Origin: an uncultured Nitrososphaerales archaeon
GTDB taxonomy: Archaea > Thermoproteota > Nitrososphaeria > Conexivisphaerales > DTJL01
Assembly: GCA_964475215.1 (NCBI GenBank)
Contig: CAYYVT010000187.1
Coordinates: forward strand, 3,506 to 67,505
Direction: 5' to 3'
DNA length: 64,000 bases
The translations under genes were made by a program, and so were the position numbers. The notes under the pieces were generated by a model. The model was not told the DNA's origin. It was given only the letters and a program-made list of their open reading frames with translations, and searched no databases. Positions 18,106-63,317 of the stretch are shown one piece after another (position 1 is the first letter of the stretch; each line of letters starts with the position of its first letter).

Positions 18106-18555
18106 TTGCTGCAGTCCCACTTAGCACTCGATGCTATTAAATATACATTTTTGTATTATATGTGTGTGCTAGCAACAACGCTCGAGAGTAAGGTTGTGAG
18201 AGCCCTATTCCTAAGGTCTCACTTCAAACGAGGCCAGCTCGACTCTCTCTTGGTGAAACATTATGCATATGCAAACGGCTACAGGGTGAAAGACGTCCTT
18301 AACCTAAAAGATCGTCCTGCTTCGCTGGGTTCGCTCGAAAGATCTGCAGCTCAGGCTGAGAGGGTTATCAGGAAATCCACTGCTACATTGATTTTGGCGC
18401 TGTCATTAGGACTTCTTGATTATGACGTTGTAAGCTCGATTCCGAAAGTCTCCAAGGCCCTAGAGGAGTTAAAAACCCAGTCTGTTGACGATGCACAATT
18501 GAACCAATTGATTAGCATAGTTGACGCAATTTTGAGCAAGTCATCACGTAAGTGA
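18106..18555 (+). CDS. hypothetical protein
   Basis: 149-aa ORF from TTG. TATA-like AAATATAC and TATTATAT boxes at about 18128-18155 suggest a shorter product starting near GTG 18163. No recognisable motif. Confidence 0.45.
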   Translation: MLQSHLALDAIKYTFLYYMCVLATTLESKVVRALFLRSHFKRGQLDSLLVKHYAYANGYRVKDVLNLKDRPASLGSLERSAAQAERVIRKSTATLILALSLGLLDYDVVSSIPKVSKALEELKTQSVDDAQLNQLISIVDAILSKSSRK

Positions 18556-18604: not shown

Positions 18605-19213
18605 TTGACAGATTTCCTCTCGGCAGGAGCCTTGATACTCTCTGTTGCGAGCCTAGGGTCTCTGGTACTGTTTCTGTTTTACCTGCCCACCCTAAGGAGA
18701 GCAGCGAAATCTTATCGCGATAGCTCCGCCATAGTATCTGGAATGATGGAAGAATTGAATTCCAGGGCTGCGACCCAAGATAAACGGTTAGCTGACATTC
18801 AAGTCAAACTTGAGGTGTTAGAAGAGCGGTGGCTAAGAAGTGGTTGGACTCCAACCCGTGCATCTGAGGACACCGATAGTCACGCGGGGTGGCTTGGGCG
18901 CGCGCCTAGGTCATCTGGTGGCGAACCAGGTTCCCCTCATTTGGTATCCTTGCCGACGGGTTTGGGTGGGAAAGTTAGCGCCCAACAGGCAGGGTCGAAA
19001 CCAACAAGGGTTGAGCTTTTTGTACTCGAAAGGCTTACGAGTGGACGATTAACTGCCCCTCAGGTGAAGGAAATCCTTGGAAGCAGTAGAGAACACGCTG
19101 CAAGAACAATGAAATCGCTAGCCGACAAGGGCCTAGTCGTTCGGGATCTATCTAAACGTCCGTATAGCTACGAATTGAGTGATTCTGGGCGCGGAGTGGT
19201 AACGGCTAGCTGA
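18605..19213 (+). CDS. membrane-anchored coiled-coil protein with C-terminal winged-helix (MarR/TrmB-like) domain
   Basis: N-terminal TM helix (GALILSVASLGSLVLFLFYL), a heptad-like region, and a C-terminal wHTH (ELFVLERLTSGRLTAPQVKEILGSSREHAARTMKSLADKGLVVRD). Confidence 0.55.
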   Translation: MTDFLSAGALILSVASLGSLVLFLFYLPTLRRAAKSYRDSSAIVSGMMEELNSRAATQDKRLADIQVKLEVLEERWLRSGWTPTRASEDTDSHAGWLGRAPRSSGGEPGSPHLVSLPTGLGGKVSAQQAGSKPTRVELFVLERLTSGRLTAPQVKEILGSSREHAARTMKSLADKGLVVRDLSKRPYSYELSDSGRGVVTAS

Positions 19214-19251: not shown

Positions 19252-19692
19252 TTATCGATCTATGATCTTGCTGAATTGGATTCTTCTTTGTAAGTCCGAA
19301 CCTTGGGATTCAACCTCCGAAGGGGTAGGAAGACGGTAAATCCACTTTCTACCACGTTTGACTCTGCTTACTTCGCCCACATTGTTCATTCTTGATAGGT
19401 AGGTGCTAACGGCCGCGAGTTTCATCGGGTGGTGGTATCTGTTTTCAAAGGCCTCTTGGAGCTGGTCTGATGTGAATTTTTTGAATGTAAACTCCTCCGC
19501 TACGAAACGCCTTAACTGGCTGTATGTGGTGTCGTCTTGAAGCAGGTCGCTACTCTCGTTTCTCTTAGCTAGGAGGTCATACATGTCGATGATCCTTGAT
19601 ACCTTGTCCTTGGATATGTTACCTTCGAGCTTTATGGTGTAACGTTCACCGTCGGATCCTTCGAACTGAATCCGTACTGTGTTCCTTCCCAA
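19252..19692 (-). CDS. hypothetical winged-helix DNA-binding protein, origin-adjacent
   Basis: 146 aa, TTG start. C-terminal wH-like segment (MKLAAVSTYLSRMNNVGEVSRVKRGRKWIYRL). A TATA-like ATTATATG lies about 28 nt upstream on its strand. Confidence 0.55.
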   Translation of the reverse strand: MGRNTVRIQFEGSDGERYTIKLEGNISKDKVSRIIDMYDLLAKRNESSDLLQDDTTYSQLRRFVAEEFTFKKFTSDQLQEAFENRYHHPMKLAAVSTYLSRMNNVGEVSRVKRGRKWIYRLPTPSEVESQGSDLQRRIQFSKIIDR

Positions 19693-19862
19693 AGGAGTAC
19701 TATCGATGAGGGTTATCGCATATAATCGTTAACGGTGATTGAATGTTAACTTGTTGGTTAACGTTAGCTAGTTTGGCATGAAAGAGCCAGCCTCCTTGTG
19801 TCATATTCACTCGGCTTAACCAGGGCTGGCTGTGAATGCGTGGGCTTGCGTTTGTACAATGG

Positions 19863-19882
19863 TTCCAGTGGACGCATTGGGG
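19863..19882 (+). repeat. ORB-like element 1
   Basis: TTCCAGTGGACGCATTGGGG. Confidence 0.65.
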
Positions 19883-19922
19883 TGACGGGCTGGCATTAAC
19901 AAGCGTCAAGGTGTGGACAGAG

Positions 19923-19941
19923 CCCAGTGGAAACAAAGGGG
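19923..19941 (+). repeat. ORB-like element 2
   Basis: CCCAGTGGAAACAAAGGGG. Confidence 0.7.
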
Positions 19942-20040
19942 TCGGAATTGAGCTCCGATGAGCTTGGACGATGTCGTGAGTTAACGAGTCAGGTAGATCA
20001 GTCGAGAAGGTGGGTTAGCCTCCAGGGCCACCCGGGACCG

Positions 20041-20061
20041 ACCAGTGGAAACACTGTGGGG
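20041..20061 (+). repeat. ORB-like element 3
   Basis: ACCAGTGGAAACACTGTGGGG. Confidence 0.7.
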
Positions 20062-20211
20062 AATATAGTCGATTCTATTGGCTGGTCTCTGTCTACTTCT
20101 TCTAGCTTGCAGGTCATTCATGATTGGCATGGTCCTCTATCAAGGGAGCAAACCAGTTAGAAGCGATATAATTTTCCATCCGTCCATGCACTATATCTTA
20201 AGTTATATATT

Positions 20212-20237
20212 TTCCAGTGGAAATACTGGGGCGGGGG
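20212..20237 (+). repeat. ORB-like element 4 (overlaps the cdc6 promoter/5' end)
   Basis: TTCCAGTGGAAATACTGGGGCGGGGG. Confidence 0.7.
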
Positions 20238-20242
20238 CTCCA

Positions 20243-21445
20243 TTGTCCAGCCAGCCACCAGATTCCTTGAACGATATCTTCGAACGAGTCCTCACCGGGA
20301 AATCGTTATTCGCCAACAGAGACGCCCTTCGAAACGAGTTCATTCCAAGTCAAATTCACTACAGAGACGACCAGATCAAGGCCGTTGCACAAATACTCTC
20401 GCCTTCCCTCGCCGGCCACAAACCCTCGAACCTCCTAATCTACGGAAAGACCGGAACAGGCAAAACAGTCGTAACAAAATACGTTATCAACCGGCTAACC
20501 GATAAGGGAAAGACCCTTTCGGGTAGCCTCCGTACAGCTTACGTCAACGCCCGCATAGCGTCGACTGAATACCGCATACTGTCGGAACTGGCCGCCGACC
20601 TCGGGGTCAATCTTCCATTTACCGGGCTTTCACTGAGCGAAGCCTTCAACAGGATTGCTACCAAAATCAAGGAAAGTGCAGTCAAGGCCATCCTAGTCCT
20701 CGACGAAATCGATTTTCTAGTCAAGTCCTCCGGAGATAACCTTCTTTATGAATTCACAAGGGCCAACGAAGAATTCAACAATGAAGCGTTCATCACCCTT
20801 GTTGGAATATCAAACGATCTCAAGTTCAAGGAGTCGCTCGACCCGCGTGTGCTCAGCAGCCTCAACGAAGAAGAAATAGTCTTTCCACCATATACCGTCG
20901 ATGAGCTGAAGTCAATTCTACAAGAAAGAATCCAAGTAGCATTCGTTCCGGGTAAAGTTAACGATGCTGCTGTGAACTTGTGTGCAGGAATGGCTGCAGC
21001 CGAGCATGGAGACGCCAGGAGGGCCGTCGACCTGCTCCGTGTAGCCGGCGAATTAGCGGAAAGGGAAAACGCGGAATCAATCGGGGACTTCCATATAAGG
21101 GAGGCCTCCAAGAGCATCGAACGGGACCGAGTCCTAGAGGCCATTCAGTCTCTTCCCATTCACGGCAAGCTCACTCTCCTCGCCGTTTCATACTTCCAAG
21201 AAGCAGAGAACACAGGCCACGTCTATGCAAAGTATACAGATCTAGCAAAACGACTCGGCCTCGAACCTTTGACTCAGAGGAGAGTCAGCGGCCTTCTAAG
21301 TGAACTTGACCTGCTTGGCCTCGTCTCCGCTCCAGTAATCAGTAAGGGAAGAATGGGCAGATCGAAAAAGATTAAACTCGAGGTGCCCCAGCAGGCGATA
21401 ACAAACTCCTTCAAAGACGACGAGACGATGAAGACGCTGCTCTAG
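20243..21445 (+). CDS. cdc6: Orc1/Cdc6 replication initiator (AAA+ plus C-terminal winged helix)
   Basis: Walker A YGKTGTGKT, Walker B LVLDEID, and a C-terminal wH. The ORF is open from TTG 20078 and has ATG 20186. TTG 20243 is preferred because it gives the usual short N-terminus (MSSQPPDSLNDIFERV...) and leaves ORB3/4 and a TTATATAT box outside the CDS. Confidence 0.85.
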   Translation: MSSQPPDSLNDIFERVLTGKSLFANRDALRNEFIPSQIHYRDDQIKAVAQILSPSLAGHKPSNLLIYGKTGTGKTVVTKYVINRLTDKGKTLSGSLRTAYVNARIASTEYRILSELAADLGVNLPFTGLSLSEAFNRIATKIKESAVKAILVLDEIDFLVKSSGDNLLYEFTRANEEFNNEAFITLVGISNDLKFKESLDPRVLSSLNEEEIVFPPYTVDELKSILQERIQVAFVPGKVNDAAVNLCAGMAAAEHGDARRAVDLLRVAGELAERENAESIGDFHIREASKSIERDRVLEAIQSLPIHGKLTLLAVSYFQEAENTGHVYAKYTDLAKRLGLEPLTQRRVSGLLSELDLLGLVSAPVISKGRMGRSKKIKLEVPQQAITNSFKDDETMKTLL

Positions 21446-22957
21446 CTAAGCCCGCCACAAGACTTCGAACGTCGATAAATCCACTAGAGCTACCCGTCCT
21501 TGAATTCGCGACAGCGACTTCGTTCCATCGGTCCAAGAAGGGGTGGATACCATCAGAGTTCCTCTATAAACGTCTTCATCGGCGATGCCAACGTGACCAC
21601 AGTGGATGATATCCGGCACCCGCTCCATAATCAGCAAATCCCGCTTCTCCGGGGCCAAACTTATCAATCCTCCATAGGAAGGAGCAAGATGCCGGGCTTT
21701 CAGAAGCGCACGAATCCCAGACGTGGGTCGAGTCTCAGAAGCTGACTGCAACTGTTTGAAAACTTCGTCCAAGCTCTGCCCATGGTAAAGGAGGACGTTA
21801 ACCCCATGCATCTTAACCATCGATGGATTCCCAAGCATCGAAACGTTCTTCATTTCATACAACAGTTTAGCATATTTCCGAATGATGGCCGGCTGCGGCA
21901 GGGCCCCCCTCGTCGCATCCATTTCTCCTGGGACGACAAAAATGCGGACGTTACGCCGAATCCTGCTCAAATAGCCAGCTAACTCTCTATAGCAAGCCTC
22001 AACTCCACGCTCGTTCAACCAACTATCACGAGCCAAGGGATTCTCTATCAGGTCTCCGTTAAGCACAAAATAGGCAATCCTTGATACGATTTCCAGTTCC
22101 CCAAGATCTCCATTCATCCAATCTACCATCCTGCCGAAAGCCAACGCATCGAAATCTGGTGAACCCATGCGAAGATCTGAACAGAAAACGGCGTACACCT
22201 TCTGGCTGGAAGTATTCATAACCCTCTCGGGTACGTCAGGGTGATAGACATTCCTAGCGTAATATCCCCTCGGCAAGGATTCGACTTCAGCCAAAACGAA
22301 TTCATCGATTAACACTTCTTCGACCCTTCGAATAGCGTCATCAGTACACATCAATCGAAGGTATCCTGTGTCGTCCTCTAAGGTCAACGACATGTAACCT
22401 CCGGACGTCTTCTTAGACACAACGAGTCCCACTACCTTAGCAAGGACCTTCTTCCCAGACACCGGAGTCTTGATTGCATTCAACTTCTCTATTTGAAAGA
22501 AGTCCGGCCGATTTCGCATCAACGAAGACATCCGCTCAAGCCTATCACGGAAGAGAAAAACATACCCGGACGCGTCGATCGTTGGATTGATTTGGTTGGT
22601 TGGATCGAAGAGGACATCAAAAGCTGGTGCGACCGTCTCCGCTAGCCCCGGCTCGGTGGCGGGGCGAACGAATGGTTTGACGTCTCTTAATCTGACGACC
22701 AACAACTTCCCTTTTTGCCTAGGCTCAGACCGAATTATCTGTTCAAGAATCCTTAGAACCAGCTCCGGTTCTCCTTCCTGCTCCAATAGCCGCCGGACGG
22801 CTTCCGGCTCGACTTGGTACCCCATTTCCAACATCTTCCTTATTACGAATACTTCATCCTCATTCCTTGCCGCCGGCAAGCTAATGTCACCTTTACTCGA
22901 GGAGTGTCCTATTTTACGATTATATGCAAGTACATCTTCAACGAAAGCGGTTGTCAT
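21446..22957 (-). CDS. DNA polymerase II (PolD) small subunit DP1 (Mre11-like phosphoesterase/exonuclease)
   Basis: 503 aa. N-terminal helical domain, OB-like middle, and a C-terminal calcineurin-like phosphoesterase (VFCSDLRMGS...VLNGDL...VVPGEMD...YHGQS...HCGHV). Confidence 0.85.
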   Translation of the reverse strand: MTTAFVEDVLAYNRKIGHSSSKGDISLPAARNEDEVFVIRKMLEMGYQVEPEAVRRLLEQEGEPELVLRILEQIIRSEPRQKGKLLVVRLRDVKPFVRPATEPGLAETVAPAFDVLFDPTNQINPTIDASGYVFLFRDRLERMSSLMRNRPDFFQIEKLNAIKTPVSGKKVLAKVVGLVVSKKTSGGYMSLTLEDDTGYLRLMCTDDAIRRVEEVLIDEFVLAEVESLPRGYYARNVYHPDVPERVMNTSSQKVYAVFCSDLRMGSPDFDALAFGRMVDWMNGDLGELEIVSRIAYFVLNGDLIENPLARDSWLNERGVEACYRELAGYLSRIRRNVRIFVVPGEMDATRGALPQPAIIRKYAKLLYEMKNVSMLGNPSMVKMHGVNVLLYHGQSLDEVFKQLQSASETRPTSGIRALLKARHLAPSYGGLISLAPEKRDLLIMERVPDIIHCGHVGIADEDVYRGTLMVSTPSWTDGTKSLSRIQGRVALVDLSTFEVLWRA

Positions 22958-61590: not shown

Positions 61591-63171
61591 TTACCGGTGA
61601 ACCATGCTCACGGTCATCCAGTCGAGCTTGGATCTGTTGGCCCAGCTGAACTTCCTCTGCATCGTCTTTGGGTACAAGGCCTGCCAATTGAAGCCCACGT
61701 GGTCGGCCCACGCCTTGTACACCCTTGGATCGATATAGTTCTTGAGAGATGTATTCAGGTTGTAATCTCTAGTCTTCCTGGCTATCTCCAAGGACAACTC
61801 CGCCTTGCGAAGGCGTCTCTCGGATGCCTCTGCCTGCTTGTCCGTCCCTGGTCGGCCAATCTTCAGCTCTCTGACCCTTTCCTCCTTCCTCCTAAGGCTT
61901 TCATCCCAGCTCTTGGGCGGGGTCCTTTTGTGGTTACACAGCACCGCGGCTTGAAGGTTGGCCATCTTCGCGAGATAGAGGTCAAGCTCGAGGTCGTCTT
62001 CCTCTGCCTTACCCTCGACCGATGACAGGTAGTCTCTGACGACGTTAGTCGCATGATAGGTCCTGAAAACCTTAGCCGTCAGGCCGCGAACGATGCCCCC
62101 CAAATATGAGTTGACCTTCGACGACGTCACTCCATCAAACACGAGCTCCTCGGGCTTCTTTCCCGTCAGGAACTCCTCGAAGTTCGCAATTACCCGTGGC
62201 TTAACATCTCGGAGAACCTTCAGCCATCTTACACTATCCTTGCCCAAGAAGTCAAACAAGATGTCTCCGTCCTTTATGGTCACGTGCTCTACCCTTAGCG
62301 TTGTGGCGCCGACCGTGTCCGCTTCGTCTTCATCCTTCTCGTCACCCACCCTCATACACAATCGATCTATCAGATAGCAGACTGTGGCAACCTTTCGTGT
62401 TTGCTTGTCGCGACTGGCTAGACCCATTTCTATCCTCTTCCGAACGCGACTTATAGTCTGTTCAAGCTTGAGTGCCTTGTCGTACTTGGACCTGTTCTTC
62501 TCTTGGGCCAGGAAGCTGCTTTCATGAGGCCAAACGTACTTGACCTTCCCTGACAAGCCGTCCACCCAAGAGGCTAGCCACATGCAAGAAGGCTCGTGGA
62601 CTATCTTTCCCCAGTTGCCGGGAGGCGCTTTGGCAGTTCGATCTAGGTTAAGCGTAATATCCCGCTCTTCAATTCTCGGCTTCCATCTCCCTCTCATGGG
62701 ATGGCTGCCCCTGCCCTGGAAGATACCAGGAGGCTCGACCACCCAATTCTGAATCTCGACTCTCTTGCCGTCAATCCGGGCGTAGCCGTAGTTCTCCTTT
62801 AACGCCTCCTTTGCCTTCTTTCGCTCAGATGCCAGCCTTCTCTTCTCCGCTTTGCCAAGCGTTTCCCTCTGTTTCTTTTCGGAGTCGACTTGATTGTTGA
62901 ATTCCATAAAATCGAGGTCGTTTAGGGAGGCTGACCTGTGTTCAGCCGGCAGTTCTCTGGAGAAATCCTTCCAGAAGTTGCTGACGTATACGGGGTCACT
63001 GACGTATGCCGTATCCTTCTTCTTGGCCCATGAGTAGGCCATTTCCTCAGCCAGAGGGCTCAATGAGAAGAATTCACCCTTGAACCTCAGCCTTAGGTTT
63101 CGTGGCTCGTATGGAGGGGTAAAGACCACGCCGTTATGACTGAGACTGTGCCAATAGCCCGCCTTGGGCAT
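61591..63171 (-). CDS. DNA topoisomerase IB (eukaryote/poxvirus type)
   Basis: 526 aa. N-terminal WHSLSHNGVVFPPPYEP, core KVFRTYHATN, and a C-terminal active-site context NTSLKNYIDPRVY (S-x-x-N-Y-I-D-P-R). Confidence 0.88.
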   Translation of the reverse strand: MPKAGYWHSLSHNGVVFTPPYEPRNLRLRFKGEFFSLSPLAEEMAYSWAKKKDTAYVSDPVYVSNFWKDFSRELPAEHRSASLNDLDFMEFNNQVDSEKKQRETLGKAEKRRLASERKKAKEALKENYGYARIDGKRVEIQNWVVEPPGIFQGRGSHPMRGRWKPRIEERDITLNLDRTAKAPPGNWGKIVHEPSCMWLASWVDGLSGKVKYVWPHESSFLAQEKNRSKYDKALKLEQTISRVRKRIEMGLASRDKQTRKVATVCYLIDRLCMRVGDEKDEDEADTVGATTLRVEHVTIKDGDILFDFLGKDSVRWLKVLRDVKPRVIANFEEFLTGKKPEELVFDGVTSSKVNSYLGGIVRGLTAKVFRTYHATNVVRDYLSSVEGKAEEDDLELDLYLAKMANLQAAVLCNHKRTPPKSWDESLRRKEERVRELKIGRPGTDKQAEASERRLRKAELSLEIARKTRDYNLNTSLKNYIDPRVYKAWADHVGFNWQALYPKTMQRKFSWANRSKLDWMTVSMVHR

Positions 63172-63317
63172 AGCCTAGCGCCTGATTCAAGACCTTTTAA
63201 GTTGTTCCTTTTATGTCCTCACGCCGCCTCTATCTGCTTTGACCCAACGGCCACTTTCGGATAGAGCGTAAACTAGACTTAAATATCGTCTTCCGAAGCC
63301 TAAGCCTGAAGGCCCTT

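Follow-up and report, generated by a model that had tools for sequence, protein, structure and literature searches.

A 64-kb stretch of DNA from an uncultured Nitrososphaerota archaeon (hereafter, the window) carries an orc1/cdc6 initiator gene preceded by a 550-bp gap (19693-20242), which lies between a minus-strand gene for a 146-aa winged helix-turn-helix (wHTH) protein (19252-19692) and the plus-strand TTG start of cdc6 at 20243. Does this gap hold the chromosomal replication origin, and how are the origin recognition boxes (ORBs) within it oriented? An initial annotation, made from the sequence, had called an oriC upstream of cdc6 with four ORBs pointing the same way and an AT-rich candidate duplex unwinding element (DUE) between boxes 3 and 4. 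Our analysis supports the call of an oriC well and revises the orientation. The gap (19.7-20.25 kb) is very probably the chromosomal oriC of this archaeon, of the classical Orc1/Cdc6-ORB type, because its motifs are clustered, the downstream gene is of the Orc1-1 class, the base-composition skew switches at ~20 kb, and the layout is conserved in relatives. The combined statement, that the locus is oriC and that ORB3 is the inverted partner in it, is one that we consider probable.

ORB boxes cluster upstream of an Orc1-1-class initiator gene

The four box strings quoted in the initial annotation are all present where it had placed them, and they are clustered in non-coding DNA, as expected of an ORB-type oriC. 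The motif CCAGTGGA occurs five times in the 64 kb; four copies fall on the plus strand within 357 bp, at 19865, 19924, 20042 and 20214, and one lies elsewhere. With 2.22 occurrences expected per whole window, the Poisson probability of at least four in 357 bp is ~1e-9. A 25-nt position weight matrix (PWM), trained on relatives only with the window left out, scored ORB1, ORB4 and ORB2 at 26.4 to 34.4 bits (Table 1), compared with a mean maximum of 12.5 in shuffled windows. These three boxes are identical at 17-19 of 23 positions to the archaeal ORB consensus CTTCCAGTGGAAACGAAAGGGGT, which is the consensus of Pelve et al. from active origins, including that of Nitrosopumilus maritimus, as quoted in a later paper (PMC4153887).

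Its family and structure matches identify the gene downstream of the gap as a genuine Orc1/Cdc6, belonging to the class that binds ORBs (Orc1-1/Cdc6-1). Its product matches NCBIfam TIGR02928 at 396 bits, and the nearest solved structures are 2V1U, Aeropyrum ORC1 bound to ORB4 (E=5e-107), and 2QBY_A, Sulfolobus Orc1-1 (E=9e-106). The TTG start that had been proposed for it is backed by a 100% identical 400-aa protein record (P0001) in which the same start is called, and by an aligned ATG in the closest genome match, an uncultured Nitrososphaerota metagenome-assembled genome with 87% Cdc6 identity (L001). Homologues beyond this match are named Conexivisphaerales, Nitrososphaerales or Thaumarchaeota, and Cdc6 identity to proteins with the first two names is 55-57%. 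No second cdc6 was found within the 64-kb window.

For comparison we used 7 close relatives (Cdc6 identity 66-87%) and ~80 more distant cdc6 loci, the latter from a metagenome scan with a Cdc6 alignment and very general patterns (Walker A, EHGDARRA), which returned relatives at 45-56% identity only. The inferred layout of the window is ORB1(+), ORB2(+), ORB3(-), an AT-rich gap of ~150 bp, a TATA box, ORB4(+) and cdc6, and the whole of it is kept in the 7 close relatives as well as in distant loci at ~50-56% identity; the AT-rich cdc6 loci L010 and L022 have the same ++-|DUE|+ order. Across relatives, ORB1 and ORB2 are spaced 59-64 bp apart, while the gap between ORB3 and ORB4 measures 136-195 bp (151-210 bp from box to box). 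Its AT content exceeds the locus mean by ~5 to 23 percentage points at every locus examined. The AT-rich stretch that the initial annotation had placed between ORB3 and ORB4 is borne out in the window, where 20160-20211 has 69% AT against a window mean of 48%.

A separate feature of ORB4, the cdc6-proximal box, is a doubled G-string at 20228-20237, which reads GGGGCGGGGG here and GGGGGAGGGG in relatives. It is conserved in the clade and confined to this box.

Relatives point to a probable minus-strand third box

According to the initial annotation, all four boxes share one orientation and no inverted copy exists. Part of this holds, in that CCAGTGG stands on the plus strand in all four boxes; the central base, however, does not define polarity. 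The dyad TTCCAnTGGAA is palindromic except for this base, and the orthologous boxes of relatives have any of G, C, A and T there, as in CCACTGG at ORB2 of L090, CCAATGG throughout L096 and, on the minus strand, CCAGTGG at ORB3 of L092. The plus-strand G shared by the four boxes is therefore uninformative, and it is the G-string that sets polarity.

At 18 of 18 related loci the G-string of ORB3 lies on the minus strand. All 7 close relatives have a conserved flank, GGG(C/G)CACCC, to the left of the ORB3 dyad, corresponding to 20025-20033 of the window. Read on the minus strand, this segment is GGGTGGCCC at 8 nt from CCACTGG, the same geometry as in ORB1 (CCAGTGG-N8-GGGTG). The right flank of the dyad is not conserved, and the plus-strand G-run at 20058-20061, which follows a 9-nt spacer, occurs only in the window and is absent from the close relatives (6 of 6). 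The third box of L092 reads TTCCAGTGGCTAGGTAGGGGTAGGG on the minus strand, and all 11 of the 11 distant Nitrososphaerota loci have a canonical minus-strand ORB as their third box (for example CCAGTGGAAAGGGAGGGGTCC in L014 and CCATTGGAAGACAAGGGGTACCCC in L010). Consistent with these alignments, PWMs built by leaving out one genome at a time preferred the minus over the plus reading of ORB3 in 6 of 7 genomes.

The arrangement first proposed would be a functional origin in which all four ORBs, ORB3 included, bind Orc1 in the plus orientation; such a unidirectional architecture would need a non-canonical route for loading two opposed MCM hexamers. In its favor, beyond the shared CCAGTGG of the four cores, ORB3 in this genome has plus-strand TGGAAAC followed by GGGG, and taken alone its plus reading is slightly better, with 14.4 versus 9.2 bits and 16/23 versus 13/23 consensus identities. 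ORB3 is weak either way, as both scores fall within the noise of a blind scan. The plus-strand G-run, moreover, has a spacer of 9 nt where ORB1, ORB2 and ORB4 have 7 nt, and it is missing from close relatives. The G-string on the minus strand, by comparison, does not vary within the clade and has its canonical form in the 11 distant loci; the central dyad base varies freely among relatives, as L090, L096 and L092 show. Alignment with sister genomes, which had been suggested as a check, shows that a unidirectional arrangement is not kept in relatives. We therefore judge a unidirectional array to be unlikely.

In our assessment, ORB3 is likely to be inverted and to form a pair with ORB4 around the DUE, its orientation in the window being read from conservation. 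With ORB3 on the minus strand, both DUE-flanking dyads would adjoin the DUE and their G-strings would lie on the far side. The layout would then be the canonical one of inverted ORBs around a DUE; the opposite polarity of the flanking boxes is taken from the 18 of 18 related loci and is ambiguous in this genome alone. At the level of sequence, the clustered boxes, the adjacent Orc1-1-class gene and the AT-rich gap that characterize an ORB-type oriC are found here, and a unidirectional layout, which would have been the unusual feature, is unsupported. As a lesson of method, the dyad is no guide to ORB polarity; the G-string is, and comparison with relatives should back it up.

Base composition switches at the ORB cluster

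Per-gene GC skew was regressed on coding strand and on breakpoint side, with the breakpoint scanned in 2-kb steps over the 64 kb. The best breakpoint fell at 20,000 (t = -7.4), and the strand-independent side effect on GC skew was -0.074±0.010 at all sites and -0.112±0.015 at third codon positions. This effect is present at all three codon positions, being maximal at the third, and is seen in non-ORF (open reading frame) DNA too. Four relatives (L001, L090, L092 and L096) have a skew switch of the same sign and larger size, with third-position GC side effects of -0.17 to -0.20, and the AT side effect is +0.03 to +0.12 in the window and its relatives. These results support a long-standing replication boundary at this position. 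The initial annotation had proposed skew as a check on its origin; an inflection is indeed present at ~20 kb of the 64-kb window, but its polarity is opposite to the bacterial convention.

The plus strand is G/T-rich on the left and C/A-rich on the right, so that the leading strands of an origin here would be C/A-rich, and the bacterial convention would call a skew of this polarity a terminus. Under that rule, the switch would mark a replication terminus, with the ORB/cdc6 cluster lying there by chance, and the GC and AT skews both have the polarity seen at a bacterial terminus. Yet the ORB boxes, the Orc1-1-class gene, the DUE and the PolD genes are hallmarks of an origin, and there is a precedent in the experimentally mapped Ori3 of Haloferax volcanii, where cumulative GC skew, both at third positions and in non-coding DNA, has a local maximum (PMC12999951). 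At the homologous wHTH-cdc6 loci of other lineages, the sign and size of the skew vary; because polarity and magnitude differ by lineage, the bacterial rule is not simply transferable. A terminus at this site thus seems extremely improbable. We found no statement on thaumarchaeal skew polarity in the literature, and we regard the reversed polarity as unexplained, not as evidence for a terminus. A skew of this strength and reversed polarity offers a natural test case for the effect of archaeal replication on base composition.

Proposed mechanism of initiation and of cdc6 control

In characterized archaeal origins, Orc1's winged-helix domains are opposed across the DUE and the loading of MCM takes place between opposing ORBs (PMC6742236). 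By analogy, the Orc1/Cdc6 encoded by the downstream gene would bind the ORB boxes as monomers, with its winged-helix domain contacting the TCCAnTGGA dyad and its AAA+/initiator-specific motif (ISM) region contacting the G-string. The functional core would consist of ORB3 (minus) and ORB4 (plus), flanking the AT-rich DUE of ~150 bp. With the DUE thereby lying between two opposed Orc1 molecules, MCM would be loaded in the interval, giving bidirectional replication. The plus-oriented ORB1 and ORB2 could act as accessory upstream sites. The TATA box TTATATAT lies so close to the start codon that the cdc6 leader should be very short, almost leaderless, and ORB4 sits between the two, as the initial annotation had placed it. 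Because of this position, Orc1 occupancy should repress cdc6: Orc1 on ORB4 would occlude the promoter, resulting in autoregulation. From direct observations, namely the conserved motifs, the gene's identity, the AT enrichment of the gap and the skew switch, we infer Orc1 binding, MCM loading, origin firing and autoregulation.

Several points weigh against this account. Besides the ORB3 scores and the skew polarity described above, the DUE is only moderately AT-rich (59%) and is not the most AT-rich 100-nt stretch of the window. The ORB cluster might instead be mainly an operator array for cdc6 and the divergent wHTH gene, the origin being dormant or dispensable and replication starting elsewhere or by recombination, as in some Thermococcales and Haloferax strains. 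ORB4 does overlap the cdc6 promoter, and replication without origins is documented for some archaea (PMC5663688, PMC11005403). A promoter operator alone, however, would require neither a DUE nor an inverted ORB pair, both of which are conserved, and the sharp, strand-independent compositional switch exactly at this position, conserved in relatives, points to a long-term replication boundary. We therefore consider a mere operator array very unlikely, and an oriC of the classical type the better account of the gap.

As an origin, the locus is ordinary, extending the known ORB/Orc1 architecture to an uncultured soil or sediment lineage of Nitrososphaerota. It should serve as a reliable anchor for contig orientation, for setting the genome start and for growth-rate (peak-to-trough) estimates in metagenomes.

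Comparison with characterized and predicted origins

Pelve et al. are said to have mapped, in 2013, a single origin in N. maritimus by marker-frequency analysis. ORB repeats upstream of cdc6 have already been described or predicted at thaumarchaeal origins (PMC4010727, PMC5797428), and the present locus shares with N. maritimus and with the predicted origin of Ca. Nitrosocaldus cavascurensis both the phylum and the placement of ORB repeats directly upstream of a single orc1/cdc6 (PMC5797428). Its boxes match a consensus derived in part from the N. maritimus origin (PMC4153887). Unlike those two, the lineage studied here is uncultured, distinct and more GC-rich, and its ORB3 is partly degenerate.

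A closer parallel in architecture is oriC1 of Sulfolobus/Saccharolobus, where an inverted ORB pair surrounds a DUE of ~130-150 bp next to an Orc1-1-class gene, with one or more extra ORBs on one side; in S. islandicus, the ORB3-DUE-ORB2 core of oriC1 is essential for activity (PMC12141716). The initiators are also closely related, as the match to 2QBY_A indicates. In contrast to Sulfolobus/Saccharolobus, the present gap has a conserved element of its own in the DUE (CGGTATATTT) as well as GTTAAC palindromes, and a single cdc6 with probably a single origin takes the place of their three origins. Aeropyrum pernix oriC1 has four ORBs, arranged as two inverted pairs, and its ORC1-ORB4 complex has been crystallized (2V1U). 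Four ORBs are likewise found here, and 2V1U is the closest solved initiator; unlike the 2 + 2 arrangement of A. pernix, the window has a 3 + 1 arrangement, in which the DUE separates ORB1, ORB2 and ORB3 from ORB4. A monomer binds the box made of a dyad plus a G-string, and does so with a defined polarity (PMC6742236). With haloarchaeal oriC1, which lies between orc1 and the divergent oapABC genes, the locus has in common that the origin occupies a conserved divergent intergenic region between an initiator gene and conserved genes without assigned function (PMC7002104). The likeness is one of gene arrangement: in place of the oapABC cluster, the locus has one small wHTH gene, which belongs to an apparently different, uncharacterized family.

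Additional motifs in the gap

Three GTTAAC palindromes had been reported in the initial annotation and are present; a fourth copy, at 19980, had been overlooked. Four copies in the 550-bp gap compare with 0.07 expected (P ~8e-7), and the intergenic regions of the 7 close relatives together hold 25 against 0.4 expected, at conserved ORB1 offsets of -137, -120, -108, +30 and +115. The copy at 19980 keeps its +115 offset in 6 of 7. The palindrome may be a site for a dimeric factor. We do not claim a universal role for GTTAAC, since outside the close clade its enrichment is only 3.3-fold, like that of AT-rich palindromes in intergenic DNA.

Within the DUE lies a conserved element, AGCGATATAATTTTCCATC. 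Its general form CG[GA]TAT(A)TTT stands 47-53 nt upstream of the ORB4 core at 9 of the 12 loci, some of them distant and AT-rich; CG[GA]TAT has a background of 2.5% per 70-nt window. The element shares TATATTTTCCA with the segment made up of the TATA box and ORB4's left half, and may represent a second promoter, half of an ORB or a site like ucm. At the other end of the gap, a TATA-like box (ATTATATG on the minus strand) is the putative promoter of the wHTH gene, and the block GCATATAATCGTTAAC is identical in the window and L001. Two copies of GGGCTGGC and an inverted GCCAGCC, also listed in the initial annotation, are present but not conserved in L001, despite its 87% Cdc6 identity, and are most likely due to chance.

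A conserved divergent winged-helix gene

An AlphaFold2 (AF2) model of the divergent protein, built from 63 sequences, has a predicted local distance difference test score (pLDDT) of 81, rising to 92-97 over the wHTH residues 56-120. The predicted fold, a generic wHTH, begins with a beta-hairpin at the N-terminus and has a helix at the C-terminus, and the best Foldseek matches of the model are ArsR/SmtB, PadR, MarR and MecI regulators. Of 78 cdc6 loci with 1 kb or more of upstream sequence, tblastn found homologues at 62 (among them L010-L015, L027, L039, L042, L047 and L059); at 52 of the 78, the homologue is transcribed divergently from cdc6, and 405-912 bp separate the two start codons. Among 1.84 billion representatives, 334 clusters belong to the family at E<=1e-3; its named members, in Nitrososphaeria, Nitrosopumilus and Bathyarchaeota, are annotated as 'hypothetical' or as 'BlaI/MecI/CopY family'. 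From these homology searches, wHTH-cdc6 is a conserved, origin-bracketing gene pair whose wHTH family is uncharacterized, and not a clade-specific neighborhood.

At two loci with ~60% Cdc6 identity (L097, 5987-6740; L098, 9105-10080), the wHTH homologue is on the cdc6 strand, between two upstream minus-strand ORBs, and the gene therefore lies inside the ORB array.

Tentatively, the GTTAAC palindromes at fixed ORB offsets and CGGTATATTT in the DUE could form a second, lineage-conserved cis layer that is read by the wHTH protein as a dedicated origin-accessory factor, in a clade with C/A-rich leading strands; this is a speculative proposal that we hold to be doubtful. If it were true, the protein would be a functional analogue of UBP/ucm in Sulfolobales or of oapABC in haloarchaea. 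The by-products of the analysis, that is, the unstudied wHTH-cdc6 pair, the extra origin motifs and the reversed skew, may outweigh the original claim.

Feature coordinates and neighboring genes

Table 1 Features of the candidate oriC and its flanking genes (window coordinates)
Feature	Sequence	Position	Strand	Remarks
Divergent winged-helix gene		19252..19692	-	146 aa; bounds the origin on the left
TATA-like box of wHTH gene	ATTATATG (on - strand)	19720..19727	-	28-35 nt upstream of the gene's TTG start; putative promoter
Three GTTAAC palindromes	GTTAAC	19728..19762 (19728, 19745, 19757)		Adjoin the putative wHTH promoter; ORB1 offsets -137, -120, -108 kept in relatives
ORB1	TTCCAGTGGACGCATTGGGGT	19863..19883	+	34.4 bits; conserved in 7/7 relatives; 17/23 consensus identities
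ORB2	GCCCAGTGGAAACAAAGGGGT	19922..19942	+	59 bp from ORB1; 26.4 bits; 19/23 consensus identities
GTTAAC palindrome between ORB2 and ORB3	GTTAAC	19980..19985		TTAAC invariant in all 7 sequences of alignment A3
ORB3 (probable orientation)	GTTTCCACTGG-TCGGTCCC-GGGTGGCCC	20025..20052	-	Dyad 20042-20052; G-string 20025-20033
Candidate DUE, AT-rich		20053..20202		Between ORB3 and ORB4; 59% AT vs 48% window mean
Conserved DUE element	AGCGATATAATTTTCCATC (family consensus CGGTATATTT)	20162..20180	+	Inside the DUE
cdc6 TATA box	TTATATAT	20203..20210	+	33-40 nt upstream of the start codon; with ORB4, invariant in 6/7 relatives and almost unchanged in the remaining one
ORB4 with double G-string	TTCCAGTGGAAATACTGGGGCGGGGG	20212..20237	+	32.0 bits; conserved in 7/7 relatives; between TATA box and start codon
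orc1/cdc6 initiator gene		20243..21445	+	400 aa; TTG start; Pfam Cdc6_lid, Cdc6_C and AAA domains
PolD small subunit gene		21446..22957	-	Pfam DNA_pol_E_B; convergent with cdc6; within conserved synteny

Three ORFs that reach into the gap, at 19700-19936 (-), at 19927-20160 (+) and an extended cdc6 ORF of 455 aa from 20078, were rejected as coding, because relatives have no equivalents, conservation is restricted to the motifs and the aligned start codon is the one at 20243. Rfam gave no match in the gap at E<=1, which excludes an RNA gene as far as Rfam goes. A scan for sigma-70 promoters and terminators, which is inapplicable to archaea, returned counts at the level of shuffled sequence.

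The gene order PolD-L/PcrB/Elf1/two small genes/wHTH/gap/cdc6/PolD-S is kept in the 7 close relatives. Both PolD subunits, Lhr, Topo IA and Topo IB, which the initial annotation had listed nearby, were all confirmed in the window. The Topo IB, at 61591-63174, is of the eukaryote type, a thaumarchaeal signature. The two small genes, at 18106-18555 (+) and 18605-19213 (+), are conserved in synteny with the origin; one is without a family match, and the other has sub-threshold C-terminal winged-helix matches only (TrmB, HVO_A0261_N).

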